Source of the DNA: Parcubacteria group bacterium
GTDB lineage: Bacteria; Patescibacteriota; Minisyncoccia; Moranbacterales; GCA-2747515
Direction: 5' to 3'
DNA length: 64,000 nt
Assembly: GCA_041660065.1 (NCBI GenBank)
Contig: JBAZXC010000002.1
Coordinates: 25,084 to 89,083 of the forward strand
Shown here: piece after piece, positions 9,608-37,561 of the stretch
Layout: each line of letters starts with the position of its first letter
How positions within the stretch are numbered: position 1 is the first letter of the stretch
Program-made: the position numbers and the translations under genes
The notes under the pieces: model-generated
What the model saw: the letters and a program-made list of their open reading frames with translations, nothing else
Told to the model about the DNA's origin: nothing
Databases searched by the model: none

Positions 9608-9636
9608 AAAAAACCCTCACAAAGAGGGTTTTTATA
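9608..9636. terminator. Rho-independent terminator (aaccctcacaaagagggtt followed by T-runs on both strands)
   Basis: 7 bp stem ccctc/gaggg with T-runs on both sides. Lies immediately 3' of the LamG-domain gene at the end of the long minus-strand cluster. Confidence 0.7.
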
Positions 9637-9650: not shown

Positions 9651-11045
9651 TTACGGTGTATAGCATTTTGGTTTCAGATTTTTTGGATCACTCTGTGCAT
9701 CAACACATAAGCGATTGACTTCGTTATCCGTAAGTGATCGGTCCCACATGCGCAAATCATCAATCGCACCCATATAAAATCCTGTCGTATGATCCTGTGT
9801 ACCGACATACAAAACCTCGCTTGGCACAGTCATAGATGTTCCTGATAGATCCCCTTTCTTCTGTTTGTCATCCACGACGATCTTTACTTCTTCACCACTT
9901 TTCCATCGCCCGACAATATGATGCCAATCCGTATTATCGATCGCATCCTCAGAACATGCCTCTTTATTTTGCACCATAAAACACACTTTACCGGCATCTA
10001 GATATACTTTATACCCATCACTGCTTGCATATTGCGATACGAGCGTGCCCGTGGAGCTTGCGACATCTTGCTTGATCCACAGAGAAATTGTGACACTATC
10101 GGTAAAATCGATCTTATTTTCCGTTGCTTTATCGACACAATTAAAATCATCAATGCCACAATTATTATCAATGTACATTGCCAGATAATCCGTGCCATCA
10201 AAATAGATTGCTTCTTGTGCATCATCGCCATACGGACTACCGATCACAGCGTCCTCCACCACAAAACCATCCACCCATGCTTCATCTTTTTCCGGTTCCA
10301 TAAAGTCTGTACTATTAGCCTCACACTCTGGAGAGAAGTCTACGACATTCCCCATTTTTGTGCCATCCGGTAGCGTGACCTTCACTGAATCTTCTTCCGG
10401 GTGGCACAGCGTCAAGACATGATCGTTTTTAGAAGAATCTTGTGCGATATACGCCTTTTCATCCTCGGTGAGTCGTGAATTGATCGCACGATCTTCAAAT
10501 GACCAGTGTGCCACAAGTCCCCGCGTCAAACTGTCACGCAATTTTACAAAAACCGCACGCACTGCCGTGCTATAGTTACCGGCAACTTTGAACCGCGCCA
10601 CATCTGCCAATTGCGCGTCACAATGTTGCAATGGTACCAAGTCAGAAGCCAAAACATCTTTTCTGAGATCCCATCCGGAATCATGTTCAACAACGGGATT
10701 TTCCATATATGCAGAAATGATGAACTCTGTATTCTTGTCACCGATATGCGCGGGAATTTCTGCAGACGGTCCGTCAACACATTTATAAACACCTGCACCA
10801 TAGATCTCATTCAATTTACCCGTCAATACACTAAGCGTATCGGTCTGCTCCAAATCCTTGTATAGCTGTTGAAGAAACTCTTCCATGCCCTTATCAGCTT
10901 GTTGAAATGCCGTTGTGGAATTCACAGAAATGTTGGCACTGCGTCGCTCCACCAACGTCACCGCCGCGACGGAAAAAGCCGCGATCAAAATGAATGATAA
11001 AACGATAAGTGCAAAAACGACAATGGAACCTTTGTGATATTTCAT
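9651..11045 (-). CDS. Membrane-anchored LamG / concanavalin A-like lectin domain protein (pilus-associated; candidate tip or adhesin protein)
   Basis: N-terminus MKYHKG followed by a hydrophobic helix, pilin-leader-like but lacking Glu+5. C-terminal motif IDDLRMWDRSLTDNEVNRL is typical of LamG-fold (LamG_3-like) domains. Last gene of the pilin/pseudopilin block. Confidence 0.55.
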   Translation of the reverse strand: MKYHKGSIVVFALIVLSFILIAAFSVAAVTLVERRSANISVNSTTAFQQADKGMEEFLQQLYKDLEQTDTLSVLTGKLNEIYGAGVYKCVDGPSAEIPAHIGDKNTEFIISAYMENPVVEHDSGWDLRKDVLASDLVPLQHCDAQLADVARFKVAGNYSTAVRAVFVKLRDSLTRGLVAHWSFEDRAINSRLTEDEKAYIAQDSSKNDHVLTLCHPEEDSVKVTLPDGTKMGNVVDFSPECEANSTDFMEPEKDEAWVDGFVVEDAVIGSPYGDDAQEAIYFDGTDYLAMYIDNNCGIDDFNCVDKATENKIDFTDSVTISLWIKQDVASSTGTLVSQYASSDGYKVYLDAGKVCFMVQNKEACSEDAIDNTDWHHIVGRWKSGEEVKIVVDDKQKKGDLSGTSMTVPSEVLYVGTQDHTTGFYMGAIDDLRMWDRSLTDNEVNRLCVDAQSDPKNLKPKCYTP

Positions 11046-11063
11046 ATCATCTAATTTAATAAC

Positions 11064-11810
11064 CTAAAAACTAAGATCTGGCGGATAATCTCGTAGTGAG
11101 ACAGAGGTTTGAATATAGATTGGCTGATCTCTCCTTTGTTCATAGAGGATATTTGTGCTCGACGGCAACACAGACATACCGATCGTCACGCGTCCGATCG
11201 TATCGGTTTTTTGGGAATCAAGTTGATCCATATAGCGCGTTGGTGCAGTCCAAAATTTCCCCGTAACATATCCGCTGGTCAACCGCTCCAATTTATAATC
11301 CGGACTACTCGGTACATACGTCGCATCTTTCGTACATTCCTCAATCTGATCAAAGCCAATTCCTACCATAGATTCGACCCATAGCGCACTATCATCATAT
11401 TTGCTTCCTGCCCGACCCTCGCCTGTCGCAAAATAAAACCGCATACACAATTCTTGCGAAAAATCATAAAGTACTAACTTGTTTGATCCATCAATACGCA
11501 AAAGAGAAAAATCATCCGTGTTCCCCTGTGCACTCGCGAATTGTGCCGGATCACGCAAGTCCTCATTATTCCTCCCCAATACCGTCGCCGTGCGCAATGT
11601 CTTTGCCATGTAGTTCATCGCAAATTGCGCATTTTCCAGATCATTTTGCGATACACGCGCATTTCGATATGCCTGAATTTGCCGTGCAAAGATGCCCACG
11701 ATCGCCGTCATGATGATGAGAAAAATGAAAATCGACACCATGAGCTCGATAAGCGTAAATCCTTTTTTGCAATTTTTTATTCTCCAATTATTCATTGTAT
11801 GATTTTTCAT
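11064..11810 (-). CDS. Pseudopilin / minor pilin (prepilin-type N-terminal cleavage/methylation domain)
   Basis: KKG|FTLIELMVSIFIFLII class III signal peptide. Start chosen at MKNHTMNNW; the ORF extends to 11885. Confidence 0.7.
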   Translation of the reverse strand: MKNHTMNNWRIKNCKKGFTLIELMVSIFIFLIIMTAIVGIFARQIQAYRNARVSQNDLENAQFAMNYMAKTLRTATVLGRNNEDLRDPAQFASAQGNTDDFSLLRIDGSNKLVLYDFSQELCMRFYFATGEGRAGSKYDDSALWVESMVGIGFDQIEECTKDATYVPSSPDYKLERLTSGYVTGKFWTAPTRYMDQLDSQKTDTIGRVTIGMSVLPSSTNILYEQRRDQPIYIQTSVSLRDYPPDLSF

Positions 11811-11815
11811 AGTTA

Positions 11816-12466
11816 TCAATCGCCATAGTTGATCCATGACGTCAGTCGCGTTTGCGCATAGACACATCCTTTTGCGATCATGCAATCCTTTTCAATATTT
11901 GCTTTCGTCGGGAAATCCGCGCCGCCAAAAACCACCACACTTGTCACATTCGCGATAATCTCATCTGGTGGCGTTGCTGCATTTATCGGGCCATTATTGG
12001 ACCGATCGTATTCTATGTAAATCTTTCGACGCAAGCCGGTTTCAAGAAACGTATTTCCTCCGGATTGATGCGTATACATACCGGTTGCCGTGTTGAGATA
12101 GATCTCCGATGGAGAGTTATTACACAAAAACTTAGAATCCGTCCCCCCAGTGTTATAGTCGATCGTACACTCAATGATCTGTGATCCTGTAATTGATGGA
12201 AATCCGTATTCTTGATCAAATGCCGTGCACCGCTCTGAACCGGTTCCGCATGTTGACTGCGTCACGTTATTATCTCGCACATTGCGCACCAACTCCGTCC
12301 CTTCTTGCGCGAGCAATGTCGCGATCACCGCATCACGACTGTCATGCAAATCTCCCACGCTTCGCACAGTCAGATAGATTGCATCCACAATACCCACAAG
12401 CAAAATAAACATCGCCACCATCACCTCGCCGATCGAAAAACCTCTTTTGTTTTTTTTATTATACAT
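11816..12466 (-). CDS. Pseudopilin / minor pilin
   Basis: KRG|FSIGEVMVAMFILLVGIV prepilin motif. Start chosen at MYNKKNKRG; the ORF extends to 12487. Confidence 0.65.
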   Translation of the reverse strand: MYNKKNKRGFSIGEVMVAMFILLVGIVDAIYLTVRSVGDLHDSRDAVIATLLAQEGTELVRNVRDNNVTQSTCGTGSERCTAFDQEYGFPSITGSQIIECTIDYNTGGTDSKFLCNNSPSEIYLNTATGMYTHQSGGNTFLETGLRRKIYIEYDRSNNGPINAATPPDEIIANVTSVVVFGGADFPTKANIEKDCMIAKGCVYAQTRLTSWINYGD

Positions 12467-12471
12467 AAATT

Positions 12472-13071
12472 TCAATAAAACGGACATGCAATATCACTAT
12501 CATTGAATCCCAACTCCTCTATAAGTCCGGTCGAATATACACAGACGTGGAATTTTTTGTCTTCATTGTTCTTTTTAATCACAAAATCAGTGCCCGTACT
12601 TGGGACTGTTTCCTGCGTGCCGCTGTCATAATATTTGCCATAGGGCACCGTAAAAATTACATGATCACTTACGCGACCCCTACTGTCATGTCCTGTAATG
12701 CTCATCCCATTGGAAGAAACATCCTCTGACAAAAAAGGGACGCCATATGCGTTTACATCCGTGTCCGTCGGACAAAATGTATCTATTGTACGCTGTGTTC
12801 CCCGAATGCTATAACCACTACTACCATTCAAAATAAATGCAAAAGAGCATGGCAACATGTCATTGTCACGCTGGCGACCTGTCAATGCGTTATTTTGCGC
12901 CTCACGCACAGCAGCAGAAACTTCTCGTCCGACAGCCTCAAGCTCTTTGGTCGAACGATCCTTAAATGAGATCACAAACATCACCATCGTCATAATCACA
13001 ATGATCGCAACGATAATGACCATTTCCAACAGTGAAAAACCTCGCCTCGTCCGTATTTTTGTTTTATACAT
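12472..13071 (-). CDS. Pseudopilin / minor pilin
   Basis: RRG|FSLLEMVIIVAIIVIM prepilin motif. Start chosen at MYKTKIRTRRG; the ORF extends to 13086. Confidence 0.7.
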   Translation of the reverse strand: MYKTKIRTRRGFSLLEMVIIVAIIVIMTMVMFVISFKDRSTKELEAVGREVSAAVREAQNNALTGRQRDNDMLPCSFAFILNGSSGYSIRGTQRTIDTFCPTDTDVNAYGVPFLSEDVSSNGMSITGHDSRGRVSDHVIFTVPYGKYYDSGTQETVPSTGTDFVIKKNNEDKKFHVCVYSTGLIEELGFNDSDIACPFY

Positions 13072-13142
13072 ATGTGTATTATCCATATGTCCCTTATTAT
13101 ATCATACACAATTCAAATTTGCACAAAGACGCGCAGATCACA

Positions 13143-13940
13143 TCACAAAAAAAGCGAGATCATATGCGGATAGACATTTTGCACGACAAATGCCGCACCC
13201 AGACCAAAGATGAGAAACGGACCAAAAGGCACTTCCGTCTTGAGAGATCGTTTTTTGATCACCATAAGACCGATCCCATAGATCGCACCCACGCAAAACG
13301 CTACCAAAAGTGCGATAAACGTGCCGATCGGTCCCAAAAGAAGTCCTATGGCAATCGCGATAAACGCATCCCCATATCCCATCCATGTTTCATCGGAGAT
13401 ATAACTCAATCCAAAGAAAAAACAAAACGCCACCACTGCACTCATGCCATGCGTAAAAGAAACACTACTCCACACATCCGTCCAAAAAGCGTCAATATGA
13501 AGATCTCGTGTCATATTTGCAACGATAAGCAATGCAATAGCCATCCACATCACATTCATGGGAATTTCCATGTATTTCCAATCATACACAAAAATAACGA
13601 CCAGATGCGCAAACACAAAAGCATACAGCACCGCAACAAGAAGATGATCAATTGATCCATGCACAAAAAAAGCACCAACAGCACCAAAGATCGCTCCCGT
13701 AGCAAACTCGACCAACGGATATTGCATCGAGATTTTCTTTTGACATGCGCGACATTTGCCACGCAATAAAATATAACTCAAAACCGGAATGTTATCTTTC
13801 CATGCAATATTTTTTTTGCACTGCGGACAGTGTGATTTTTGCACGACCAATCCCTCCCCTGTGCGCAAACGGCAAATCACCACATTGCAAAAACTCCCAA
13901 TCACCAACCCATAAATAAAAAAGAGAATTATATAGATCAT
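13143..13940 (-). CDS. pilD: Prepilin peptidase (A24 family, PilD-like)
   Basis: N-terminal TM helix, zinc-binding CxxC...CxxC (CPQCKK...CRACQKK) in the first cytoplasmic loop, and a polytopic membrane domain. Confidence 0.85.
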   Translation of the reverse strand: MIYIILFFIYGLVIGSFCNVVICRLRTGEGLVVQKSHCPQCKKNIAWKDNIPVLSYILLRGKCRACQKKISMQYPLVEFATGAIFGAVGAFFVHGSIDHLLVAVLYAFVFAHLVVIFVYDWKYMEIPMNVMWMAIALLIVANMTRDLHIDAFWTDVWSSVSFTHGMSAVVAFCFFFGLSYISDETWMGYGDAFIAIAIGLLLGPIGTFIALLVAFCVGAIYGIGLMVIKKRSLKTEVPFGPFLIFGLGAAFVVQNVYPHMISLFL

Positions 13941-14010
13941 ATTTATTACATATCCACTTTTGACTTTTGCATTTATACTTTTTACTTTTGCCTTTTGACT
14001 TTTGACTTAT

Positions 14011-14427
14011 CTAGCATCCTTCATCGCTGACAAAACCGATCTCACTGTACGTGATGCTTGTACAATTTCCCGCGTTTCCCGTTCCCGGGGTGATTACAAT
14101 CTCAAAATGTCCGTCAAAATCACATTGTATCGGCACTGTGACCGCACCAATATGTGCATCATCAGGATACACGCTATCAGCCAGATCCGTATCACTGCAA
14201 ATCGCCACAGTAGAGCCTGCATTGACCGCCTTACTTTGGATGTCTCCATTCTCATCACAGCACATAATACCCGCCTTGTGGATCGTTGCCGCACTCGACT
14301 TGAATGAAGCGTCCTTTGCCTTATTACGTGCATATCCCAAGGTCGTCAAGATGATTGACGCCAAAATACCAATGATCGCTATTGTGATCAAAAGCTCGAT
14401 CAATGTAAAGGCTTTTTTGGTATGCAT
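14011..14427 (-). CDS. Type IV pilin (major-pilin-like) with a Cys-rich, Ser/Thr-rich C-terminal domain
   Basis: MHTKKA|[19 protein letters not shown]. The residue at -1 is Ala rather than the canonical Gly. Shares the ARNKAK(D/Q)ASFKSSA segment and the Cys pattern (CC...C...C...GC end) with the pilin at 34054-34440. Confidence 0.8.
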   Translation of the reverse strand: MHTKKAFTLIELLITIAIIGILASIILTTLGYARNKAKDASFKSSAATIHKAGIMCCDENGDIQSKAVNAGSTVAICSDTDLADSVYPDDAHIGAVTVPIQCDFDGHFEIVITPGTGNAGNCTSITYSEIGFVSDEGC

Positions 14428-14524
14428 AACGGGAAAACAAAAAATCACACCTCCCCTTTGCTATTATCATATCATATACATCCAAAATTCATAGCATACA
14501 CAAAACAACAATATATCTTTTTTA

Positions 14525-15241
14525 CTATAAATAGGCACGGTGTTTGAACTCTTTGCTACTTGAGGGAATGAAAAAAGTATCCATTTGCCAAAAAGATTTA
14601 TCATGTTTTCTCAACATTAGATCAACTATTTCTATTGGAGAAAAACCCCGCTCTTCCATATATGCACACATTTGATAATATTTGAGGCTATCGTTTGTAA
14701 TTTGAAAGTTATAAGTCTCCAATATTATCAATTCAGCAGATCTGATAATTTCTTTTGCGCCCTCTAAAATTGGTATTTCAAATCCATGTGTGTCAAGTTT
14801 CAATAAATAAGGACCTTTCAACTGTCTTCTTTTGATCTCATTGTCAAGTGAAATTGCGTGTACTTCAACGCCATTTTCAAATGGTGTATCGGATGCCAGT
14901 CCTCCAAACTTAGCATGATTATCAAAATAGATTTTTCCATCTTTTTCGCCTGCTGCTGCAACTATAAATTGGGCATTTTTATTTTTGTGAACAAATTTAT
15001 TGAGGTCATCAGTGTGTGCATCTTGCGCATCTACAAGTAGATAATCTGCCTTCGGAAAAGTTTCCATGCAAAGTTTCGACCACTGGCCATTGGATGCACC
15101 TATATCAATAACAGTCTTGGGGTTTATTCCTCTCTGAGAACATCTTTTCAGCCCACCCCTCATTGTTAAATTTTCACCATGAATCTGACTATGAATGAAT
15201 TCGGATGTTTCTCTTTTAAAATTTAAGATACTGTTTATCAT
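14525..15241 (-). CDS. FkbM-family methyltransferase
   Basis: IDIGASNGQWS motif and a C-terminal KLDTHGFE...ILETYNF region, characteristic of the FkbM family. Confidence 0.7.
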   Translation of the reverse strand: MINSILNFKRETSEFIHSQIHGENLTMRGGLKRCSQRGINPKTVIDIGASNGQWSKLCMETFPKADYLLVDAQDAHTDDLNKFVHKNKNAQFIVAAAGEKDGKIYFDNHAKFGGLASDTPFENGVEVHAISLDNEIKRRQLKGPYLLKLDTHGFEIPILEGAKEIIRSAELIILETYNFQITNDSLKYYQMCAYMEERGFSPIEIVDLMLRKHDKSFWQMDTFFIPSSSKEFKHRAYL

Positions 15242-15249
15242 AATATTTA

Positions 15250-15345
15250 TGTTTATAAATTATTTTTTATGTCATTCCCGCCCTCCACAGGCGGATAAAT
15301 TCCAGCGGGAATTTTGCTTCCCCCTTGTCATTCCCGTGAAAACGG
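15250..15345. repeat. Two hairpins sharing ATTCCCG/CGGGAAT stems
   Basis: attcccgccctccacaggcggataaattccagcgggaat and attcccgtgaaaacgggaat. The second is exactly ATTCCC-N8-GGGAAT. They lie between the GT4 gene stop and the FkbM gene start. Confidence 0.7.
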
Positions 15346-15350
15346 GAATC

Positions 15351-16595
15351 TTAGCCCTTTTCCAATAAAATATCTTCATATAATTGTATGTATTTTTTTG
15401 CGACAATTTTTGAGTCAAATGTTGCCACTACTTTTTTCCTTGCATTTACTCGGAGATCCGCACAATTTTCATTATGCAAGATCCATTCAATGCCCTGGGC
15501 CAGATCCTTTGTGTCAAAAGGTTTTGCCACATATCCATTTTTTTTGTGATCGATCATGTCACTGTTGCCACCAATATCAAATCCCACAACAGGCGTCGCG
15601 CATGACAAACTCTCCATGATGGCATTTGAGAGATTTTCCTGTAAACTCGGTACCACCATCACATCAGCGGCACTATATAGGTTCACCAACTCCATATCAT
15701 TGTTGATGTGTCCCAAGTAATGTGTTTTAAAACCAAAATCCTGATCTTGATCCTCTTTGGCATTTCCAAAAACCACCAGCTCGATATCATCCGACTGCAA
15801 TTGATGCAATGCGGCGCATAATTCTTTAAAGCCTTTTCTGGGATCTTCTGTAGAATTTACTGCGCCAAACAGCACAAGCTTCTTATCCTGTGGCAAATTG
15901 AACATCTTCCGTGCCTCGGTTTTTTCCACTGCACAAAACACCGTCGTATCTATAGGATTTGGCAAGTTGATGTGCCGGTGATTTTTGAGCAGACTGCTTT
16001 GCTTGGAACACTCCGTCAACCATTTGCTTAAGCCGACTATGGTCAAATTTTTCATTTGAGAAAAAACATCACTCTTTCTTTTGAAAATTTTTCTACTGAG
16101 GTCTTTCTCTTTTTTACTGCGCAATACTTTGCAATTTCCGCATTGCGCATGATATAAACCACATTCATCATCATAATGACATCCGCCCGTAAATGCCCAC
16201 ATATCGTGCAATGACCACACAATAGGTGCGTTGATTTTTGACAGATCCTCTATTTTTATCATGCCCAGACAGATCCAGTGCAAATGCACAATATCAGGAT
16301 CAATCTCATTGATACGATCCACGATGCTCCTGTGAGGAAACCATGAGGAACTGAAAAATGCTTTCGTCTTATTGCGATAGGGATACAAATGAATCGCATC
16401 TATAATTGGACGCAAGTTATTGAAAAATTTGTAAATTTTGGATTTTTCAGTTATTACAGTCTCATCATCGCTCCTTTTGTACTGCACAAGCATCTGACTA
16501 TCGATGCCCTGACCTAACAACGAACGATGAAGTCTATGTGCCGCCCGTGCCGCACCACCATAAATATCAAATGTATTAACTATGAGTATTTTCAT
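15351..16595 (-). CDS. Glycosyltransferase family 4 (GT-B, Glycos_transf_1)
   Basis: N-terminus GGAARAAHRL and C-terminus VVPSLQENLSNAIMESLSCATPVVGFDIGG (E-X7-E-like motif). Confidence 0.8.
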   Translation of the reverse strand: MKILIVNTFDIYGGAARAAHRLHRSLLGQGIDSQMLVQYKRSDDETVITEKSKIYKFFNNLRPIIDAIHLYPYRNKTKAFFSSSWFPHRSIVDRINEIDPDIVHLHWICLGMIKIEDLSKINAPIVWSLHDMWAFTGGCHYDDECGLYHAQCGNCKVLRSKKEKDLSRKIFKRKSDVFSQMKNLTIVGLSKWLTECSKQSSLLKNHRHINLPNPIDTTVFCAVEKTEARKMFNLPQDKKLVLFGAVNSTEDPRKGFKELCAALHQLQSDDIELVVFGNAKEDQDQDFGFKTHYLGHINNDMELVNLYSAADVMVVPSLQENLSNAIMESLSCATPVVGFDIGGNSDMIDHKKNGYVAKPFDTKDLAQGIEWILHNENCADLRVNARKKVVATFDSKIVAKKYIQLYEDILLEKG

Positions 16596-17422
16596 TTTAT
16601 AATTGATCTCTTTATAGATTTTAACGTAGTCTCCATAAATTTCAAAATAGGAAAAGAAAATTTTGATAACTTCTCAAAAAATCTTATTTGAACCCAATTT
16701 TGGTCTTTAACTTTGACCTTTTGAAAGATCGTCGCATGACTTCCTGCCAATTTCCCAATCACTTTGAGCCCCATCATCATCGCAAAGAGATTGAATGTGT
16801 ATCGGAAATGAAAATTTTGAGGCAGATGACACTTGATAACGGGGAAAAAGCAATTTGCGATGATCAAATAGCCATCTTTTTTTACGGCTTTTATCATCCC
16901 CGCAAAATCCTCTAGAGGATCCGAAACGTGCTCCAAAACATCCGTACTCACCAGACAATCATATTCAAAATCCAATTTATCCACGATTGTGATATTTCCA
17001 AATTCCTCCGCTCTTTTTAAACCAAATTCACTTGGATGCGGTTCATAAATATTTACACTGCTTTTTCCATCTTTTTGCGCCACCAATCTCGCCAAAGTGC
17101 CGAAACCTCCGCCGTAATCAAGCACGTTTTTTATGTCATGATCGACAATCCAATCACTTATGGCATGACGGTGACCCATCGAAACATCATCCTGCTCTAT
17201 AAATAATCCGTTTAATAACCAAACCGGATGAGAATAATATCGTGATATTTTCTCAAAATTATTTTTTTTATTATCGCACCCATATTCATCCCAAACCAAA
17301 TCCATCAAATACCACATTTGCTCAAGATCATCGACCATGCTCGCATTGGCCTTTTGCAATAGATTCACGACCTCTCTCCTTTCTCTTTCTGTTAAATTTT
17401 TATCTTCTAAACTGATTTTCAT
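16592..17422 (-). CDS. Class I SAM-dependent methyltransferase
   Basis: Motif I VLDYGGGFGTLARL. ATGA overlap with the downstream gene. Confidence 0.65.
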   Translation of the reverse strand: MKISLEDKNLTERERREVVNLLQKANASMVDDLEQMWYLMDLVWDEYGCDNKKNNFEKISRYYSHPVWLLNGLFIEQDDVSMGHRHAISDWIVDHDIKNVLDYGGGFGTLARLVAQKDGKSSVNIYEPHPSEFGLKRAEEFGNITIVDKLDFEYDCLVSTDVLEHVSDPLEDFAGMIKAVKKDGYLIIANCFFPVIKCHLPQNFHFRYTFNLFAMMMGLKVIGKLAGSHATIFQKVKVKDQNWVQIRFFEKLSKFSFPILKFMETTLKSIKRSIIK

Positions 17423-17485
17423 AAATTATCGAGATTGATTATGTGATAAATATATACTGTAAATACGACTTTAAAAAATAGGTTG

Positions 17486-18211
17486 TTATATCGAAACGCT
17501 AATTTTTTTCCTAGCAATAACTACGTTATCTAAGTATAAATTATCATTTTTTGGCAGTATTTTTGATAAAATTGCCCCAACGATATTTACAGGCGCTATC
17601 AAAATAATAGTTATCAACACGTTTAAATAATTATTTTTTGTTAATGTTACGTCATATATATATGACGTAACTAACTGAAATATCGTTTCTATTCCTTTGC
17701 TCGTTTTTCTACTATCCAGCATCTCAAAACCATGCTCGCTTAAAATATGTTTTAAGCCAAATGATGTATATCTTGCAAAATCATATGGCTTTTCATGTTC
17801 TTCCCAAACGAGGGGAACGGTCAATAAAAAAATACCATCTTTTTTTAAAACTCTATTAGCCTCTTTCAAAAAATGACCTGGATTAAACACATGCTCAAAA
17901 ACTTGACTGGAAATTAAGCTATCAAAACTTGCATCACCAAATGGCATTTTATTACAGTCATAAAAATAATCCGCTTTTTCATTTGGTCTTCCTTCTACAT
18001 CAAGTCCAATATACTCATCACACACACACAAATTTTCGTATGGCTTTGATCCGCACCCAATATCCAAAACCCTGCCCCTTAAATTTACTATTAGATCTGA
18101 TACATTCTTATGCAAACCCCTTCTTGAAAAATAAAAAGGATTTATAAACAAACCAACAAAGCTGGGATTGAACTGCTCTCTTTCATATAATAACCTTATT
18201 TTTTCCAGCAT
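17486..18211 (-). CDS. Class I SAM-dependent methyltransferase (Methyltransf_11-like)
   Basis: Motif I VLDIGCGSKPYE and motif II/III LISSQVFEHVFNPGHFLKEANRVLKKDGIFLL. Confidence 0.7.
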   Translation of the reverse strand: MLEKIRLLYEREQFNPSFVGLFINPFYFSRRGLHKNVSDLIVNLRGRVLDIGCGSKPYENLCVCDEYIGLDVEGRPNEKADYFYDCNKMPFGDASFDSLISSQVFEHVFNPGHFLKEANRVLKKDGIFLLTVPLVWEEHEKPYDFARYTSFGLKHILSEHGFEMLDSRKTSKGIETIFQLVTSYIYDVTLTKNNYLNVLITIILIAPVNIVGAILSKILPKNDNLYLDNVVIARKKISVSI

Positions 18212-19119
18212 AACTTTTTCTCAAACAAATATTTTTTAAATAGTTTATAAAAGGATGTATTTCTCTTATAAAATTTTATGATCTTACGCACCGCCAAATC
18301 ATTCTCTCTCAAAACTGCATCCATTCTTACATTATATGATGAATTAAGACTGTTTTTGAAGATATCACCCCCTCGACAATTATGCCCGCTATCATCAATG
18401 CCTATATTATCGACAAAAGTTTTAGCTGGATTTAAACAGAGTCCACCCTGTTTAAATATAGTAGCATACCAAAAAATTGCCCACGTATCATTTTTTTTCA
18501 TTTTATTGGCGATGATCTGATCCCAAAACCCCGTTCCATTACATACGTTAAATTTTTTGATAGCTTTTTGATCAAATGTGGCAATGATTTTATCAAGATC
18601 TTTCTCAAAATATTGCCACCGATCGCGCCATGTTGCCCACCCCCAGCAATTCATACCCCTCCAAAGGAAAACATCATCAAGCCCATCGGTGTCGATTGGA
18701 TAATTCCATCCGCTGATATGCCACACTTTTTTTTCATTCTCATAATAATCCAATGCATCATTCATAAATTTCAAAAAGTATGGACTCGTGACCAGATCAT
18801 CTTCCAGCACAATAACCTTTCCATACATATTCACGATTTCCGTAACGCCGTCAATGATGGAATTTGCGAGTCCTTTGTTTTTTTCTTGCTCAATAATCGT
18901 CACTTTTTTGAATCCTGTTATGGTTTTGATATATGCACGCACCGCATCCACATCCTCTTGTACTTTTTCATCTCGCGCATTATCGCTATACACAAAAAGA
19001 TCGCTATCAAGCGCAAGATCATTTTTTTGCAACGCCTCAACCGTCCGTCGCGTATGCTCAGGGCGGTTATATACAAACAATACAATTGGCGCTAAATTAT
19101 GCATTTTTTTGAGTAACAT
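18196..19119 (-). CDS. Putative glycosyltransferase (GT-A-like; family uncertain)
   Basis: N-terminal IVLFVYNRPEHTRRTVEAL...LFVYSDN followed by a DD-containing segment (VIVLEDDLVTSPYF). A near-identical copy of its 5' end lies at 19998-20207. Confidence 0.45.
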   Translation of the reverse strand: MLLKKMHNLAPIVLFVYNRPEHTRRTVEALQKNDLALDSDLFVYSDNARDEKVQEDVDAVRAYIKTITGFKKVTIIEQEKNKGLANSIIDGVTEIVNMYGKVIVLEDDLVTSPYFLKFMNDALDYYENEKKVWHISGWNYPIDTDGLDDVFLWRGMNCWGWATWRDRWQYFEKDLDKIIATFDQKAIKKFNVCNGTGFWDQIIANKMKKNDTWAIFWYATIFKQGGLCLNPAKTFVDNIGIDDSGHNCRGGDIFKNSLNSSYNVRMDAVLRENDLAVRKIIKFYKRNTSFYKLFKKYLFEKKLCWKK

Positions 19120-19139
19120 TGGAAAATATATTATCTAAA

Positions 19140-19931
19140 TTATTTTTTAAGAATTGCGATAATGTTTTGAAATGCATAAATTTCACAAAACACTGGTGAA
19201 TAGTCTTTTATTTTCAAAAGTTCTCCACCAGGCAAAATTCTATAGAAATTATAATTTGGTAGAAAATCCCAAAAATCTTTAAAATTCGTTCTGCTTATAA
19301 TATTCATTTCATTGAATTCAAAATGTATAGCATTTATTTGATTATTTTTTATATACTTCTCAACACCTCTCAAAACATTAAACTCATTACCTTCTACATC
19401 AATCTTTAATAGATGTATTTCTCTAATATTGTGTTCTTGAATAAACGAATCCAAAGAAATCACATCTACCAAATGTGAGACAGCGTTCCCCTTGTGCAAA
19501 TCCTCAATAACATTTTTATACAATGAGGCGTGCGAAGACCCGTCATTACAATCATAATCATATAATTTCATCACACCACTCTCATTTCCCACCGCTACGT
19601 TATATGCAGTGAAATTATCACTCTTTACTTTGTTAATTAATTTTTGATATGTCCTGGGATGTGGCTCAAATGCAAAAATAATGCTACTATTATTCATTTT
19701 TAAAACAGTGGAAGAATAATTTCCAACGTTTGCGCCAACATCAATAACAATTGGGGATTTTTTGTTGTCCAAATATTTCTTGAGCCATATATTCTCGCCA
19801 GTTAGATAGCTACTTTTATAATTCAAGACACCCAATCCTCTCAAGCCCAATTGGTAAATTAGTCTATTGAACTTTCTAAATATTTTTCTACAAAATATAT
19901 ATGCGTACAGATTGTATATTTTTTCTATCAT
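19140..19931 (-). CDS. FkbM-family methyltransferase
   Basis: VIDVGANVGNYSS...FAFEPHP...LLKIDVEGNEFNVL. Confidence 0.75.
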   Translation of the reverse strand: MIEKIYNLYAYIFCRKIFRKFNRLIYQLGLRGLGVLNYKSSYLTGENIWLKKYLDNKKSPIVIDVGANVGNYSSTVLKMNNSSIIFAFEPHPRTYQKLINKVKSDNFTAYNVAVGNESGVMKLYDYDCNDGSSHASLYKNVIEDLHKGNAVSHLVDVISLDSFIQEHNIREIHLLKIDVEGNEFNVLRGVEKYIKNNQINAIHFEFNEMNIISRTNFKDFWDFLPNYNFYRILPGGELLKIKDYSPVFCEIYAFQNIIAILKK

Positions 19932-19997
19932 TTAGTTTGTTTTTTATTAAATCACACAGATCATCATCTCCACACAAAATATTTTACACCCCTGAAT

Positions 19998-20207
19998 TTA
20001 TATTTCAAAATAATTAATCCGAACATACTCACCAAAGACAGCCACCCGATGAACAAGATACTTACAATTTTTATCTCGCGCATTATCACTATACACAAAA
20101 AGCTCGCTATCAAGCGCAAGATCATTTTTTTGCAACGCCTCGACCGTCCGTCGCGTATGCTCAGGGCGGTTATATACAAACAATACAATTGGCGCTAAAT
20201 TATTCAT
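19998..20207 (-). pseudogene. Truncated duplicate of the 5' end of the glycosyltransferase gene at 18196-19119
   Basis: About 145 nt (20063-20207) match 18970-19113 with about 4 mismatches. The encoded MNNLAPIVLFVYNRPEHTRRTVEALQKNDLALDSELFVYSDNARD then diverges and terminates after 69 aa. Confidence 0.8.
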
Positions 20208-21333
20208 CTTTTTGTGTTAATAAATACAACGCTCTTTGCACAACAAATCTATGAGAATCTATTTTTATATTATGCAACAAAAGCAAATTCCGTTCTACAA
20301 TACTTTTTGTGGGAAAAAATGTTTTTCTTGCTATATTTGTAATTCCCTGAATAAATGTCACTTTCTGTAACATTCCATTCATGGCCTCTTCATAATAACC
20401 GCGATAGTATTTTTCAAAAAGGCACAGTGACGTAGTATCATTCAATCTTTCATATTCCGCACCAAGCAAAGAATTCAAATGATCCATATCATATACTACT
20501 TCATCCTCCTTTACTATACACAACTGACCATTACGTTTCTTGTGAAAGATAATATCAAAATCTTTTAGCCCATCTTTTTCAATGTCTAAAATCACACTGT
20601 AACTATCGTCACTTTTTTTCTCAAAACCATCCACATCAAAATAAAAATTTCCTAGACTGTAAAAGATCATGCTTTCGCCATATTTTTCATATCCCTGAGG
20701 CACGTGTGGATGATGACCGATCACGACATCCGCGCCAATGTCACAAAAACGCCTATATTGCTCACGCCACTCTTTGATAGGAAAATCGATATTCTCCACT
20801 CCTGCATGTGCCAACACAATGACAATGTCAACATTTTTTTTCAATTCTCGCACACAATCCTCCAGAGATCGATGCAATATCCACGCATATCCGCTACGAC
20901 CCCTATCTTCATCCAAACATCCAAATTCATTTTCACATCCAGCGATCAGGCCTATTTTTACACCATTTGTCTCCACTACCTTGGGCTGATACGTCTGGGC
21001 AAAATCCCTACCACATCCAACATATTGTAACCCATGATCTTCCAACATTGACATTGTATGTGCCATGGCAATATCACCATAATCATAAATATGATTGTTT
21101 GCCAATGATACATAATCAAATCCATACTTTCGCAACTGCGGGATCATCTCTGGTGCTTGCACAAGATGCGGACCCGCTTTTTTTATGGGATGTGCTCCAT
21201 CAGTTTTTATCGACGCCTCAAAATTACAGATTGCAATATCCGCATTTTCTACAACTTTTCGTATGTTATCATCCAAGAAATCTTTTGCATCAGTACTGAC
21301 GATATCCCCACATGCAAATATTTTTACACCCAC
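20200..21333 (-). CDS. CapA-family (PGA_cap) metallophosphatase-like capsule/polymer biosynthesis protein
   Basis: ICNFE...LANNHIYDYG...VVIGHHPHVPQG motifs of the CapA / calcineurin-like family. Confidence 0.7.
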   Translation of the reverse strand: MGVKIFACGDIVSTDAKDFLDDNIRKVVENADIAICNFEASIKTDGAHPIKKAGPHLVQAPEMIPQLRKYGFDYVSLANNHIYDYGDIAMAHTMSMLEDHGLQYVGCGRDFAQTYQPKVVETNGVKIGLIAGCENEFGCLDEDRGRSGYAWILHRSLEDCVRELKKNVDIVIVLAHAGVENIDFPIKEWREQYRRFCDIGADVVIGHHPHVPQGYEKYGESMIFYSLGNFYFDVDGFEKKSDDSYSVILDIEKDGLKDFDIIFHKKRNGQLCIVKEDEVVYDMDHLNSLLGAEYERLNDTTSLCLFEKYYRGYYEEAMNGMLQKVTFIQGITNIARKTFFPTKSIVERNLLLLHNIKIDSHRFVVQRALYLLTQKDE

Positions 21334-21352
21334 AGTTTTTGTTACTTAACAA

Positions 21353-22954
21353 TTACGTATATGATTGCGTATCTTTTATGCCTTTTTCAATCGCTTTTAC
21401 CACACAATAATCATACAATGCTCGTAAAAATTTGTTTTTTACTCCACACAATTGTAGCACGCCACGAATTTTTGGAACATGCAATAACTTATTCTGTAAA
21501 GACTGGTACAAATTCGTATTATCTAGTAATTTATTAATTTGCACAAGTCTGTTCTCATCTATGTATTTTTTCATTTTATCTGCATCAATTGGTTCAAATC
21601 GTGTCTTTCTTGCTACTTCATAATTCAAATCATTGTTTTTATCAGATTTTAAATCCATTTCTTCGAGATTGAGTCCAAAGCGCGCAAAAAAATCTTTTTC
21701 CCACACTCTATTTTTTCTCCGTTCATCAGATATATTCAAAGTTGCCTTTACGATATCAAAATTCAGGAATGGTGTCCAAACGGGCATGCCGAAATATTCA
21801 GGTATTTGTGTAAGATATGAGAGAAGAATCAACTTCACGCGCATTGCAAGAATTGATTTTATCTTATCATTTTTTAAATATTCACAATTCCTTTTATAAT
21901 ATTCTTTTTTCAATTTTTCATTACTCTGCAAATTCAGATATTTCAGATCCAAACTCATTCCATGCGCATACCCCAAATTAATAATATCGTGATAATTTTC
22001 TATTTCATCGAATTTACCTAATTCTGCCCACGCATCACCAATAATACCACTCAAAAAAGAAGACCCCGAGAAATCATGTCCTTTGGAAATATTTTTATAA
22101 AATTCTATATGATACATCCCATGAAGATGTGTGCTAAAGCCATATATTTTATACCATTTATCGATATATTTATGATACTCTTTTAATTCTATTTGCTCCC
22201 ATTTCGTATTGTAGATCTCTGATATTTTTTTTGCATGCGCCACTTCATGACTTTGGCTCTGATCTTCACTAACGCCATAAGTAAAACTTCGTATCCTTTT
22301 TTTATCTTTAACGAGATGATTTAACATACGACTATCATACCCGCCAGAAGTTGGGATAACTATATCGCCAACAGTTACAGATTCAACATCGGTTATATAT
22401 TTTTGCATGAGATCTATCACATCATTTTCATCTGACACATCTGCCAAAAAACTATCATCCAGAACAGGATCTTCTTTATATTCTATTTCTGCATGATCAG
22501 ATATGGTCAACGTGGAATAATATCTCATGAATTTTACATCTGCAAAGATCGTTTGTTCAAAAACACTATATCCAAATTCACAAAAATTCGACAATCCCTC
22601 TTCATGAATTTTTTTATCTCTTAAACAAAAATTAGATAATGTGGAAACGATATTTTCTTTTTGGTTGTAAAATACCGGGATAGACCCCAACCAATCATTT
22701 TCAACGATAATATTATCGCCTTCAAAACTGATCAGAATATTTCTATCCAAAAGACCATCGTTTAAGGGAAATGACAAAGAATATTTGCCATTGATCTTAT
22801 GTAGCTCAATATCTCCAATACCCCACAAATAGATATTATGATGACCATGTTTAACTACAATAGTTTTTATGCCAACATCAAAAAAATCAACTTCAGGTGA
22901 TCTATTTTCTTTTGTAATGAGAAATCCTATTATTTTATTCATTATAAAGATCAA
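21353..22954 (-). CDS. Asparagine synthetase-like PP-loop amidotransferase (no N-terminal glutaminase Cys)
   Basis: PP-loop motif VIPTSGGYDSRMLNHLV. 533 aa. The N-terminal ~200 aa domain is of unknown type. Confidence 0.6.
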   Translation of the reverse strand: MIFIMNKIIGFLITKENRSPEVDFFDVGIKTIVVKHGHHNIYLWGIGDIELHKINGKYSLSFPLNDGLLDRNILISFEGDNIIVENDWLGSIPVFYNQKENIVSTLSNFCLRDKKIHEEGLSNFCEFGYSVFEQTIFADVKFMRYYSTLTISDHAEIEYKEDPVLDDSFLADVSDENDVIDLMQKYITDVESVTVGDIVIPTSGGYDSRMLNHLVKDKKRIRSFTYGVSEDQSQSHEVAHAKKISEIYNTKWEQIELKEYHKYIDKWYKIYGFSTHLHGMYHIEFYKNISKGHDFSGSSFLSGIIGDAWAELGKFDEIENYHDIINLGYAHGMSLDLKYLNLQSNEKLKKEYYKRNCEYLKNDKIKSILAMRVKLILLSYLTQIPEYFGMPVWTPFLNFDIVKATLNISDERRKNRVWEKDFFARFGLNLEEMDLKSDKNNDLNYEVARKTRFEPIDADKMKKYIDENRLVQINKLLDNTNLYQSLQNKLLHVPKIRGVLQLCGVKNKFLRALYDYCVVKAIEKGIKDTQSYT

Positions 22955-23594
22955 CTAATAAAGATGTGTAGGAAATATTATTCTCTGTAAATTGTTTCCT
23001 TAAATGCCTTGGAACGCTCTGAATCATTTTTTCATATTCTTCATCATTATCTGTAAATCTACCTTTATAATTTTTTGAACATCGCGAGATATATCCATTT
23101 TCAAAATTAAGATCTGATGTATGAAAAACGCCATCTTTATCAAAATATTCAAGCCCTTTTATCTTGTAGCCACATCTCTCTGCAATTTGTTCAAGATCAT
23201 CAATGCTGTAATGATATTTATGATCATCTGCACCAGGCTCAGTGCCATTTTTTCCAGTCAACTCACGCACATATATTGATGGGTGATATGCATCTGGCAC
23301 GGCTATTCTAATTACACCATTTTTACTTAAATACTTTTTTGCAATTGAAAGAAAAAACAGAAAATCATCATATACCAAATGCTCTATCACATGCTCCAAC
23401 AATATCTTGTCAATTTTTTTATCACCAAAAATAAAAGCAAAATCACGCTCTTGCGTAATATCAAGCTCATCAATATCTGTAGCGACCCACCCATCAAATT
23501 CAGTAAAGTTTGCCCCAGCAATCAATTTGATCGACGGGTTTTTTTGAATCATATATTTTAATATATTTTTTTTTATTTTATTCACAAATTGCAT
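22935..23594 (-). CDS. SAM-dependent methyltransferase (Methyltransf_11-like)
   Basis: KLIAGANFTEFDGWVATDID (an LNxGCG...GWxNxD-type motif I variant) and ILLEHVIEHL...LSKNGVIRIAVPD. Confidence 0.5.
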   Translation of the reverse strand: MQFVNKIKKNILKYMIQKNPSIKLIAGANFTEFDGWVATDIDELDITQERDFAFIFGDKKIDKILLEHVIEHLVYDDFLFFLSIAKKYLSKNGVIRIAVPDAYHPSIYVRELTGKNGTEPGADDHKYHYSIDDLEQIAERCGYKIKGLEYFDKDGVFHTSDLNFENGYISRCSKNYKGRFTDNDEEYEKMIQSVPRHLRKQFTENNISYTSLLVDLYNE

Positions 23595-24372
23595 ATAGAT
23601 CCTCTTGTCCTAAATTATTAATATCATCATGCATCACTTCCGTTGCATCTAATTTATAGGTTTTGTATCTGTTTTTTGTGAGATAATCTATTACTTCACT
23701 TTTACTTTTTCCTTGCTTGTCTAATAATATTGGAGAATGTTCAAAAATAATCATTTTAATAGCATTAGATTGCAATTTCTTGCATGATCCTTGTAAAACA
23801 TCATACTCCAATCCTTCCACATCAATTTTTAAAACATCTATTTCTTGAATCCCCTTTTCTTCACAAAATTGATCTAGCGTTATTGTTTTAACTTGCACGG
23901 ATTTTTTAGCTTTCGCAATATGATTTTGATCAAGAGAATGATGCCCATACGAATCAAAAAGGTGAAATGTCGCTACGCCATTTTCATTTGAGACAGCTTG
24001 CTGAACTAACTCAACATTGCTAATATTATTCACCTCAATATTTTCATTAAATCTTTTTATGTTGTCCAAATCAGGTTCAAACGAGTAGACCTTCTCACAA
24101 TGTCGTGCCATCCACATAGTTGTAATCCCGATATTTGCTCCAATATCTATTCCAATTTTTGATTTTTTGATTTTTTTATCCAATGCAATCATCATCGGAA
24201 CAGCATCACAAGAGTTTTTTGTTGAAAAAATATATGCAAAATTATCTTTGAAATTTCTTTTTGCAAGTATCCCCATTCGATCTTTATGATAAAATTCTAC
24301 ATCATATTTTTTAAGTATATGCGAAAATATTTTGAATTCATATTTTTCAATTAGTTTCATTATTCTATTCAT
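23578..24372 (-). CDS. FkbM-family methyltransferase
   Basis: GIDIGANIGITTMWMARHCEKVYSFEPD...LKIDVEGLEYDVL. Confidence 0.75.
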   Translation of the reverse strand: MNRIMKLIEKYEFKIFSHILKKYDVEFYHKDRMGILAKRNFKDNFAYIFSTKNSCDAVPMMIALDKKIKKSKIGIDIGANIGITTMWMARHCEKVYSFEPDLDNIKRFNENIEVNNISNVELVQQAVSNENGVATFHLFDSYGHHSLDQNHIAKAKKSVQVKTITLDQFCEEKGIQEIDVLKIDVEGLEYDVLQGSCKKLQSNAIKMIIFEHSPILLDKQGKSKSEVIDYLTKNRYKTYKLDATEVMHDDINNLGQEDLYAICE

Positions 24373-24378
24373 ATTTTT

Positions 24379-26517: not shown

Positions 26518-26576
26518 AATTATACTTTATGAACGGATATCCTATTCAACAACGATTTAAATATTTTACTAAAAAC

Positions 26577-27356: not shown

Positions 27357-27391
27357 AAATCAAAAAATATCTTTTAATAATCTCCTATAAC

Positions 27392-29577: not shown

Positions 29578-29584
29578 AGTAAAA

Positions 29585-32261: not shown

Positions 32262-32265
32262 ACTG

Positions 32266-37531: not shown

Positions 37532-37561
37532 AGGTTTTCTTTATAATGAAATAAGATTTTA

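Follow-up and report, generated by a model that had tools for sequence, protein, structure and literature searches.

A string of pilin-related genes in the analysed stretch of DNA (64 kb in all; the window) encodes one pilin with Ala rather than Gly before the cleavage site (-1) and a LamG-domain protein without Glu at +5, raising the question of whether these products are processed in some different way or belong to a type IV pilus (T4P) of a familiar sort. The operon is real and conserved, and is of an already known kind; each of its "atypical" leader traits has a known precedent and none is truly aberrant. The region most probably encodes the accessory half of one T4P system, in a CPR bacterium belonging to Candidatus Moraniibacteriota. 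The best matches carry the names 'Parcubacteria group bacterium' and Candidatus Moraniibacteriota, which bears out the original prediction of a CPR host.

The predicted set of pilin, PilD, minor-pilin and LamG genes was also borne out, and is likely to comprise a second pilin (pilin2), PilD, three minor pilins and a tip pilin of PilX/GspK type that carries a lectin-like domain. All features described here lie on the minus strand. The LamG gene (9651–11045) comes last, and its stop codon is directly followed by an intrinsic terminator (9609–9633; AAAAACCCTC-TTTGT-GAGGGTTTTT, then a T-run) that closes the operon. The order glycan genes, pilin2, pilD, minor pilins, LamG, ligA is conserved wherever a contig extends far enough, and is complete with all three minor pilins in six relatives. 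One further relative contig shows pilin2 through ligA and carries no DNA upstream of these, and another ends after the second minor pilin. Among species-representative genomes, all of them Moraniibacteriota, several hold the full set, while in a few only one or two minor pilins can be recognised or a contig end cuts the locus short.

The three minor prepilins all have canonical G|F..(E5) junctions: minor pilin 1 (12472–13086, RRG|FSLLE), minor pilin 2 (11816–12466, KRG|FSIGE) and minor pilin 3 (11064–11810, KKG|FTLIE; PF07963, 36.7 bits). They occupy H-like, I/PilV-like and J/PilW-like positions, labels that reflect gene order and size only, and none of the three reaches the equivalog cut-offs for GspH, GspI, GspJ or PilV. 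Minor pilin 1 gives weak N-terminal matches to ComGD and GspH, below the family cut-offs; minor pilin 2 scores 27.2 bits against PilV (TIGR02523, cut-off 52.2); and the ComGE, ComGF and GspJ matches of minor pilin 3 are all under cut-off. A promoter-like site, the extended -10-like TGATATAAT, ends 9 nt 5′ of the minor pilin 1 ATG. These genes had been described as uniformly separated by 5 nt, suggesting tight translational coupling. Two junctions are indeed exactly 5 nt (TGA-AATTT-ATG at 12472/12466 and TGA-TAACT-ATG at 11816/11810), but there are only two, each depending on one start chosen from 3–6 candidates, and the third junction is 18 nt, which is no more than expected by chance. Minor pilin 2 also has an alternative start at 12487 that would give a 16-nt overlap with the upstream gene. 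The equivalent gaps in four relatives are 8/28, 11–23/25–40, 13/1 and 15/6 nt; since the spacing is not conserved, it does not support coupling, and the 5-nt value is a coincidence.

The LamG protein starts MKYHKG|SIVVF, confirming the Phe in place of Glu at +5. Its N-terminal moiety (aa 1–175; 10521–11045), with the leader MKYHKG|SIVVFALIVLSF... and the motif ERRSANISVNS..AFQ.AD, is probably a tip minor pilin of K type (PilX/GspK/ComGG-like), as judged from its invariant junction and from a profile family that matches Pfam PilX_N. A [KR]G|S[IV][LIV]VFAL junction, behind a basic leader of 5–27 residues, is present in 36 of 37 orthologs; the remaining one (P0148) is truncated at its N-terminus. 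A profile of aa 1–178 retrieved 752 clusters at E ≤ 1e-3. In 174 family members the -1 residue is Gly (161) or Ala (12) in all but one, +1 is Ser in 171, and +5 is Phe or Tyr in 168 and never Glu. Most of the remote members sampled (76/95; best E 1.7e-10) match PilX_N, and IMG calls one of them 'Tfp pilus assembly protein PilX'. Close family members match it weakly in only 4 of 18 cases (best E 0.006), and the window protein has no match to PilX_N at E ≤ 10, so that the link is transitive, with most of its weight on the first ~80 residues, hydrophobic helix included. In HIJK operons, the K subunit is the tip cap and has no Glu5 (PMC9934059); Glu5 is likewise missing from ComGG (PMC3694846). 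The absence of Glu5 defines the GspK/PilX/ComGG class, and its absence here thus points to a K subunit (PMC9934059, PMC3694846).

That the LamG protein might be no pilin at all, and instead a surface lectin, either Sec-secreted or anchored in the membrane as a type II protein, encoded merely downstream of minor pilin genes, is very improbable. Such a protein would fit the missing Glu5, the Ser rather than Phe at +1, the lack of a direct PilX_N or N_methyl Pfam match and the uninformative structural searches with the N-terminal domain; SignalP called no PilD site in the analogous Saccharibacteria PilX1/PilX2 (PMC11623550). However, the Gly sits exactly at the boundary of charged leader and hydrophobic segment while the leader varies from 5 to 27 residues, a signature of class III signal peptides and not of Sec. 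The hydrophobic segment (about 26 residues) is also over-long for a Sec h-region, PilX_N homology is seen at the family level, and at every locus long enough to tell, the minor-pilin operon ends with this gene. Nothing points to a Sec-type signal peptide, and with the [KR]G|S junction kept and Gly or Ala at -1 in 173 of 174 members, the earlier suggestion that the protein is an uncleaved anchor or a non-canonical substrate is not the preferred interpretation of the missing Glu5.

The remainder of the protein (aa ~176–464; 9651–10520) is a LamG/concanavalin-A-like jelly-roll module, with a Laminin_G_3 match of 67.8 bits over aa 310–444 and a variable, Cys-containing insertion at about aa 190–300. 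In an AF2 model, pLDDT is mostly 88–96 over aa 281–450 (one ten-residue block at 82), and the jelly-roll fold was recovered by Foldseek, the best matches including the LG domains of agrin and neurexin and the Hc jelly rolls of botulinum and tetanus toxins (E about 1e-8, probability 1.0). The position of this protein is the one expected of a tip adhesin, as predicted.

Pilin2 (14011–14427, 138 aa) carries the leader MHTKKA|FTLIE, confirmed in the sequence: the gene starts ATG CAT ACC AAA AAA GCC TTT, and Ala(-1) is the GCC codon at 14412–14410. It scores 32.8 bits against PF07963 (cut-off 21.2) and 33.2 bits against TIGR02532 (cut-off 16.3). An upstream start that would restore Gly(-1) was searched for and none was found; the only in-frame candidate, GTG at 14448, gives the leader MIFCFPVMHTKKA and keeps the Ala. 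Every ortholog has its start at the corresponding ATG, which gives a leader of 6 aa. Pilin2 is a paralog of the canonical PilA (34054–34440; 49% identity), and the cysteine pattern said to be common to both was confirmed as six aligned Cys, the norm of the family (78/114 homologs).

Comparison with relatives showed Ala(-1) in 15 and Gly(-1) in 7 of the 22 closest pilin2 orthologs, and Ala in 24/114 of all homologous pilins as well as in 12 PilX-type proteins. To call Gly 'near-invariant' here was therefore an overstatement, the published prepilin motif being (A/G)X4(D/E) and PilD being described as cleaving "at a glycine or alanine" (PMC3244431). For S. pneumoniae ComGC, cleavage after Ala15 and N-methylation were established by mass spectrometry (PMC3694846). 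One review calls Gly(-1) 'absolutely critical' in bacteria (PMC4471445), and reduced processing of pilin2 is thus possible. Our reading is that Ala(-1) represents a tolerated, lineage-typical cleavage-site variant and does not mark a different processing route.

The residue could instead be functionally meaningful, by slowing PilD cleavage and so setting the pilin2:PilA stoichiometry, with maturation slow or conditional, or by needing an Ala-adapted PilD. Ala is enriched in the pilin2 clade (15/22 versus 9/92 other homologs, Fisher p = 6e-8), but this test counts related sequences and not independent events. Strom and Lory (1991) reportedly found that P. aeruginosa PilA with Gly-1 changed to Ala was still cleaved, at reduced efficiency, which also counts in favour. 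Against this, close orthologs switch between Gly and Ala in genomes of identical synteny, the Gly forms falling into three nested sub-groups of a neighbour-joining tree (at least three switches), as if near-neutral, and more distant Moraniibacteriota have Gly at the pilin2 position.

PilD itself, the bifunctional prepilin peptidase/N-methyltransferase (13143–13940, 265 aa; A24_N_bact 116.5 bits, Peptidase_A24 45 bits) has the motifs CPQC-(21 aa)-CRAC, matching the four-Cys pattern of P. aeruginosa PilD (PMC3584216), and the Asp motifs FVYDWKYMEIP and WMGYGDAF. In an alignment with seven orthologs (eight genomes), no column segregates meaningfully with A or G at -1, and no residue near the catalytic motifs, both of which are the same in the two groups, co-varies with it. 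The closest PilD (73%) comes from a Gly(-1) genome. The same enzyme must also cleave five Gly(-1) substrates in the window, and the proposed co-adaptation of PilD is therefore unsupported. A functional role for Ala(-1) is quite unlikely.

About 20 kb away lies the core T4P machinery (34642–41849, assigned from translations, with Pfam matches for pilM and pilO): pilM (40797–41849; PilM_2, 132 bits), a pilN-like gene (40048–40749), pilO (39308–40021; PilO, 28 bits), pilB (37562–39292), a response regulator (37142–37531), pilT (35993–37093) and pilC (34642–35850), with pilB, pilT and pilC recognised by inspection of the sequences (Walker motifs and overall similarity). The adjacent PilA (MKKG|FTLIE) is the presumed major pilin. 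A second, distinct filament may also exist, with pilin2 as its major subunit and the operon's own tip complex, leaving PilA to a separate one; this could be a competence (ComG-like) DNA-uptake pilus or a thin adhesive pilus, analogues being the two T4P of Saccharibacteria and PilA4/PilA5 of Thermus. The order pilin(A-1), three minor pilins and Glu5-less subunit mirrors comGC-GD-GE-GF-GG, S. pneumoniae ComGC also has Ala(-1) (PMC3694846), and the best NCBIfam matches of minor pilins 1 and 3, although sub-threshold, are ComGD and ComGE/ComGF. Pilin2 is conserved about as well as PilA (81% versus 86% identity, two genomes), and Saccharibacteria do assemble two distinct T4P (PMC11623550). Nevertheless, a second filament is unlikely: the 64 kb hold a single pilB/pilC/pilM-N-O set and a single K-type gene, and PilA lacks neighbouring minor pilin genes of its own. 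The gene for PilA is preceded by a strong, well placed Shine-Dalgarno sequence (GGAGGTGA, 8 nt upstream of the ATG), whereas the only such site of pilin2 is GGGGAGG, ~22 nt upstream. A LamG tip, moreover, suggests binding of glycan and not of DNA.

Among known systems, the HIJK tip complex (GspH-I-J-K; FimU/PilV/PilW/PilX; PilH-I-J-K) shares four consecutive prepilin genes in one operon, the last encoding the largest subunit, the only one without Glu5 and with an N-terminal family matching PilX_N, and a proposed role as primer of assembly and tip cap (PMC9934059, PMC4471445). It differs in that the first three proteins here fall under the GspH/I/J and PilV cut-offs, that PilD and a pilin paralog lie in the same gene string, and that the K subunit has a C-terminal LamG module in place of the inserted alpha-domain of GspK or a separate PilY1 adhesin. 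Streptococcal ComGC resembles pilin2 as an Ala(-1) pilin cleaved and N-methylated by PilD, and ComGG, with a degenerate peptidase motif, is likewise last in its pilin string and lacks Glu5 (PMC3694846); here, in contrast, there is no adjacent comGA/comGB, no feature for DNA binding was found, and a lectin-like domain is borne by the last subunit.

The lectin-bearing PilX architecture has precedents in Saccharibacteria PilX proteins and in a ConA-like modular pilin of Streptococcus sanguinis. PilX1/PilX2 of N. lyticus TM7x, also CPR, are lectin-like putative tip pilins, PilX2 being needed for normal host binding; there as here, a C-terminal lectin-like domain (in PilX1 an L-type-lectin-like beta-jelly roll) belongs to the largest minor pilin of the locus, the proposed tip protein and glycan binder (PMC11623550). 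Standard tools call a PilD signal in neither case, but the present phylum is Moraniibacteriota, the LamG domain is Pfam-recognised, and the conserved [KR](G/A)|S-x-L-V-F junction argues for PilD processing. S. sanguinis PilC, of a monoderm-type T4P, also fuses a pilin moiety to a concanavalin-A-like/LamG-superfamily lectin module; models place it at the tip, in a complex with further minor pilins, and its glycan binding has been shown experimentally (PMC9934059). The class III signal peptide of PilC is canonical and Glu5 is present, the Glu5-less subunit there being PilA, whereas here the lectin module is on the Glu5-less K-type subunit itself.

The mechanism that probably follows from this arrangement is that of a tip complex; processing (cleavage and methylation), tip placement and the binding of glycans are inferences. 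[quoted passage not shown] A priming complex, formed by the K-type subunit with the three minor pilins, would start the filament on the PilB/PilC/PilM-N-O machine and end at the pilus tip, with the K subunit topmost, where it would need no Glu5, there being no subunit above whose N-terminal amine would need neutralising. Pilin2 may serve as a PilE/GspG-like link between tip complex and PilA shaft, or as an alternative major pilin. The LamG module would thereby be displayed at the tip, where its most likely ligand would be a glycan of a host cell or a surface.

The genes from pilin2, the second pilin gene of the window, through to that of the LamG protein all lie on the minus strand. Pilin2 (14427-14011; 138 aa, beginning MHTKKA↓, where the arrow marks the cleavage site) matches PF07963 (32.8 bits; cut-off 21.2) and TIGR02532 (33.2 bits; cut-off 16.3), and has the features of a type IV prepilin: a short basic leader, a small residue at -1, a hydrophobic one at +1, Glu at +5 and a hydrophobic stretch of about 20 residues. 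It is followed by the gene for the prepilin peptidase PilD (13940-13143, 265 aa; A24_N_bact 116.5 bits, Peptidase_A24 45 bits), by three minor pilin genes, and by the gene for the LamG protein (11045-9651; 464 aa, beginning MKYHKG↓SIVVFALIVLSF), which shows a Laminin_G_3 match of 67.8 bits at aa 310-444. An intrinsic terminator (9633-9609, minus strand) comes directly after the LamG gene. Minor pilin 1 (13086-12472, RRG↓FSLLE) and minor pilin 2 (12466-11816, KRG↓FSIGE) score 19.7 and 20.5 bits with N_methyl, just under the gathering score of 21.2, so they were assigned mainly from the G↓F..E motif; for minor pilin 3 (11810-11064, KKG↓FTLIE) the prepilin N-terminal motif is confirmed by Pfam/NCBIfam. 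The minor pilins do not reach the NCBIfam cut-offs for GspH (24.3 vs 80), GspI/PilV (27.2 vs 52.2) or GspJ/PilW (22.4 vs 64.85), and their matches to these models are confined to the N-terminal prepilin segment. They appear to be H/I/J-like by position, and not members of those equivalogs.

The order pilin-pilD-minor pilins-LamG-ligA is common to all eight inspected contexts (five with Ala and three with Gly at position -1 of the pilin), as far as the contigs reach. Database records list the exact proteins under 'Parcubacteria group bacterium', on a contig of 307 kb, and the relatives with resolved genomes all belong to Candidatus Moraniibacteriota, in line with the CPR context first proposed for the operon. 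The canonical pilin PilA, presumed to be the major pilin (MKKG↓FTLIE; 34440-34054, minus strand), is encoded some 20 kb from the operon, where its gene closes a pilM-N-O-pilB-response regulator-pilT-pilC cluster adjoining recA. Pilin2 and PilA are 49% identical with six Cys aligned, so the cysteine pattern reported for the two pilins is indeed shared, and it is the norm of the family (78 of 114 homologs). Between two genomes, identity is 81% for pilin2 and 86% for PilA, values that do not separate major from minor status.

The Ala before the cleavage site of pilin2 is encoded by GCC (14412-14410). The sole in-frame upstream start, a GTG at 14448, only extends the leader and leaves Ala at -1; the residue is independent of start codon choice, and translation of the orthologs begins at the matching ATG, giving a leader of six residues. 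The reading of pilin2 as a pseudogene or a product of sequencing error was rejected in view of 22 intact orthologs (47-81% identity) with conserved Cys and conserved synteny. These were taken from a comparison of 114 homologous pilins with a recognisable motif, the closest 22 of which form one neighbour-joining clade. Within this clade, 15 members have Ala at -1 and seven have Gly, and Ala occurs in nine of the 92 remaining homologs (Fisher p=6e-8 for the enrichment, counting related sequences rather than independent events). The Gly forms fall into three nested sub-groups of the tree, indicating that the residue has switched several times, and farther Moraniibacteriota have Gly. The effect of a Gly-1 to Ala change in P. 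aeruginosa was reportedly described by Strom and Lory in 1991. Gly(-1) has been called invariant in bacteria by one review (PMC4471445), which makes the initial surprise at Ala understandable. A survey of Gram-positive bacteria gives the motif as (A/G)X4(D/E), which permits the Ala of pilin2, and states that PilD 'cleaves at a glycine or alanine' (PMC3244431). In S. pneumoniae ComGC, cleavage after Ala15 and N-methylation were found by mass spectrometry (PMC3694846), and by this likeness pilin2 would also be cleaved and N-methylated after its Ala. The departure from a near-invariant Gly therefore stands as regards the Ala itself, but not as an anomaly: it is a real, lineage-typical and tolerated variant, present in 15 of 22 orthologs and accommodated in the literature. 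A regulatory role of Ala(-1) through processing kinetics is possible, with the enrichment as its sole support.

It had also been suggested that the adjacent PilD may have co-adapted to this residue. PilD has two catalytic Asp motifs and a CxxC...CxxC domain, the four-Cys domain described in PMC3584216. Eight orthologs were aligned, from five genomes with Ala(-1) and three with Gly(-1). In all of them CPQC-21 aa-CRAC, FVYDWKYMEIP and GYGDAF are conserved, and neither the Asp motifs nor the CxxC-21-CxxC domain differs between the Ala and Gly genomes. Only seven columns segregate with the -1 residue; they are variable, mostly hydrophobic and expected by chance at n=8. The nearest relative (73%) of the window's PilD, which comes from a genome with Ala, belongs to a genome with Gly, and the window's enzyme must handle five Gly(-1) substrates in the window. 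Co-adaptation was rejected on this evidence. The pilin2-pilD intergenic region (13941-14010, minus strand) is an A-rich spacer with repeated (A)GTCAAAAG / GCAAAAG units (AAGTCAAAAGTCAAAAGGCAAAAGTAAAAAGTATAAATGCAAAAGTCAAAAGTGG), and no terminator hairpin was found in it.

The minor pilin genes were originally described as separated by exactly 5 nt. Two such gaps exist (TGA-AATTT-ATG and TGA-TAACT-ATG), but only two, and each requires one start to be chosen among several candidates. In four relatives the corresponding distances are 8/28, 11-23/25-40, 13/1 and 15/6 nt. As the spacing is not kept, the translational coupling drawn from it finds no support; compact spacing is general in the operon and the value of exactly 5 is a coincidence.

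The LamG protein consists of a putative N-terminal pilin moiety (aa 1-175) and a C-terminal LamG module. It lacks Glu5, with Phe at +5 as first noted; this and the other initial statements about the sequence all proved correct. The full-length orthologs number 37, with BLASTP identities of 43-88%, except two at 38% (P0154) and 34% (P0157). In 36 of them (the exception, P0148, is truncated N-terminally) a basic leader of 5-27 residues ends in [KR]G and is followed by S-[IV]-[LIV]-V-F-A-L. The Gly is thus fixed at the boundary between charged and hydrophobic residues while the leader length floats, which points to a class III (prepilin) signal, unlike a Sec signal. A profile of residues 1-178, searched against 1.84 billion representatives, retrieved 752 clusters (50% identity) at E<=1e-3. 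Among 174 family members, -1 is Gly in 161 and Ala in 12, +1 is Ser in 171, and +5 is Phe or Tyr in 168 and never Glu. PilX_N (PF14341) was matched by 76 of 95 scanned remote members (best E 1.7e-10), one of which is annotated as PilX by IMG, and weakly by four of 18 close relatives (best E 0.006). The protein of the window has no PilX_N match at E<=10, so its membership rests on transitive homology, through the matches of remote homologs found by its own profile. Foldseek of a model of the N-domain (aa 1-178, pLDDT 71.5) against PDB gave no match at E<1, which speaks neither for nor against a pilin fold, and the N-domain profile gave chance matches only against PDB sequences.

A prepilin-type junction without Glu at +5, in a protein encoded last in a minor-pilin operon, defines a K-type (PilX/GspK/ComGG-like) minor pilin, and the LamG gene is last in every locus long enough to show it. 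Lack of Glu5 is a recognised hallmark of the K subunit of HIJK, the core minor-pilin tip complex; this subunit caps the tip, with no subunit above it whose N-terminus needs neutralising (PMC9934059, PMC4471445). ComGG likewise lacks Glu5 (PMC3694846). The absence of Glu5 in the LamG protein is expected rather than anomalous, since it is this hallmark, and with the [KR]G↓S junction in 36 of 37 orthologs the view of the protein as a non-canonical substrate is set aside.

The C-terminal part belongs to the LamG/concanavalin-A-like superfamily (PF13385; 67.8 bits against a threshold of 27.6) and is confidently modelled as a jelly roll, with AF2 pLDDT mostly 88-96 over aa 281-450 and one ten-residue block at 82. 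The closest Foldseek matches of the module include agrin and neurexin LG domains and the lectin-like Hc jelly rolls of BoNT/TeNT (E ~1e-8). The LamG fold family has protein-binding members and enzymes as well. A GLVAHWSFED motif (aa 176-185), nearly invariant across the orthologs, looks like the first strand of the jelly roll. Between it and the Pfam-matched aa 310-444 lies a variable insertion of about 110 aa that contains Cys (aa ~190-300; window ~10146-10478) and whose length differs among orthologs. This insertion could be a specificity-determining region. The proposed tip adhesin finds support in the position of this lectin-like protein's gene, last in a minor-pilin operon. The sequence identities, the conservation and the structure of the operon are direct observations; processing, tip location and ligand are inferred.

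Several neighbouring elements were also observed. Just upstream of pilin2 (14428-14475, minus strand) and of its orthologs in five relatives (L001-L003, L005, L006), the 5' leader follows a conserved plan, in which an extended -10-like TGnTAnnAT precedes AAAGGGGAG(G), itself about 22-25 nt upstream of the ATG, and UUUCCC adjoins the start codon. In single-sequence folds GGGGAG pairs with UUUCCC in six of eight loci (dG -6 to -11 kcal/mol, weak z-scores), and RNAalifold gave no consensus structure for this leader. The pairing may represent a hairpin masking or positioning the Shine-Dalgarno-like element. Upstream of minor pilin 1 (13078-13105, minus strand) lies TGATATAAT, with TGGTATAAT at the equivalent site in L004 and a similar element in L001. 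Since the element ends only 6-9 nt 5' of the ATG, the minor-pilin operon may be transcribed from a promoter of its own, as a leaderless or near-leaderless mRNA. The minor pilin genes and the LamG gene all lack an upstream Shine-Dalgarno sequence.

Between the two pilin loci (14525-30496, minus strand) is a glycan-biosynthesis island of about 16 kb, encoding GT2 and GT4 glycosyltransferases, several FkbM and other methyltransferases, a Wzx-type flippase and a PGA_cap protein. Its G+C falls to 0.31-0.39 around 16-28 kb, and its gene content varies among relatives (L001-L004, L006) while the flanking pilus genes are fixed. Directly downstream of pilA (30504-33996, minus strand) are two paralogous polytopic membrane proteins of 576 and 585 aa, one with a weak EpsG match (E 2e-4) and the other with no Pfam match; L001 has a similar 587-aa gene, also without a Pfam match. 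They are candidates for pilin or surface glycosylation (oligosaccharyltransferase- or polymerase-like). Three third-party-annotated MAGs with the Moraniibacteriota-type operon (L008, L013 and L017; DYDB01000002.1, CAZHQB010000001.1 and CAYRUU010000052.1) are titled 'Micavibrio sp.', the name of an alphaproteobacterial predator. L008 and a Moranbacteria-like NCBI assembly (L002) share one and the same contig, and the titles look like a taxonomic mislabel in public records.

CPR/Patescibacteria depend on physical attachment to other cells, for which type IV pili are the best-supported device. All six prepilins would be cleaved, and probably methylated, by PilD. Minor pilins 1-3 and the K-type LamG protein would then form a priming complex on the PilB/PilC/PilMNO machine and be pushed out at the filament tip, where the displayed LamG module would bind a host-cell or surface ligand, most likely a glycan. 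Pilin2 may either link the tip complex to the PilA shaft, as PilE/GspG do in analogous operons, or form an alternative filament.

Three known systems are closest. The large minor pilins PilX1 and PilX2 of Saccharibacteria end in lectin-like domains and have been proposed to act as tip proteins; normal host binding requires PilX2, and for neither protein was a PilD signal predicted (PMC11623550). PilC of S. sanguinis is a modular pilin with a glycan-binding ConA-like lectin, but it retains Glu5 (PMC9934059). The third is the generic HIJK complex. To these the analysis adds a Moraniibacteriota example of a lectin-capped tip complex and sequence evidence that the N-terminus of CPR PilX-type proteins is a prepilin signal with a conserved G/A↓S-x-L-V-F junction; it also offers a brief look at a large modular family. 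In this family the conserved prepilin module [KR](G/A)↓S-x-L-V-F ... ER[RK]S ... AFQ.A is fused to a range of domains, among them LamG, Fib_succ_major, VWA and endosialidase-chaperone, over at least 750 protein clusters (50% identity); the C-termini of 95 remote members include LamG in 22, Fib_succ_major in eight, VWA in two, and other modules. A tentative joint reading, on balance somewhat doubtful, would make the Glu5-less K-type tip pilin a general carrier of interchangeable host-recognition modules in CPR, so that the tip subunit, and not a separate PilY1-type protein, sets the host or surface bound, with the Ala(-1) pilin beside PilD serving in the Moraniibacteriota subclade as a deliberately slow-maturing linker.

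The current understanding of type IV pili is unchanged by these results. For annotation, prepilin patterns that accept only Gly overlook real pilins in this lineage. CPR PilX-type proteins reported by prediction tools to lack a PilD signal carry the [KR](G/A)↓S-x-L-V-F junction and should be treated as K-type prepilins, a rule that helps in annotating candidate host-recognition proteins in metagenomes.
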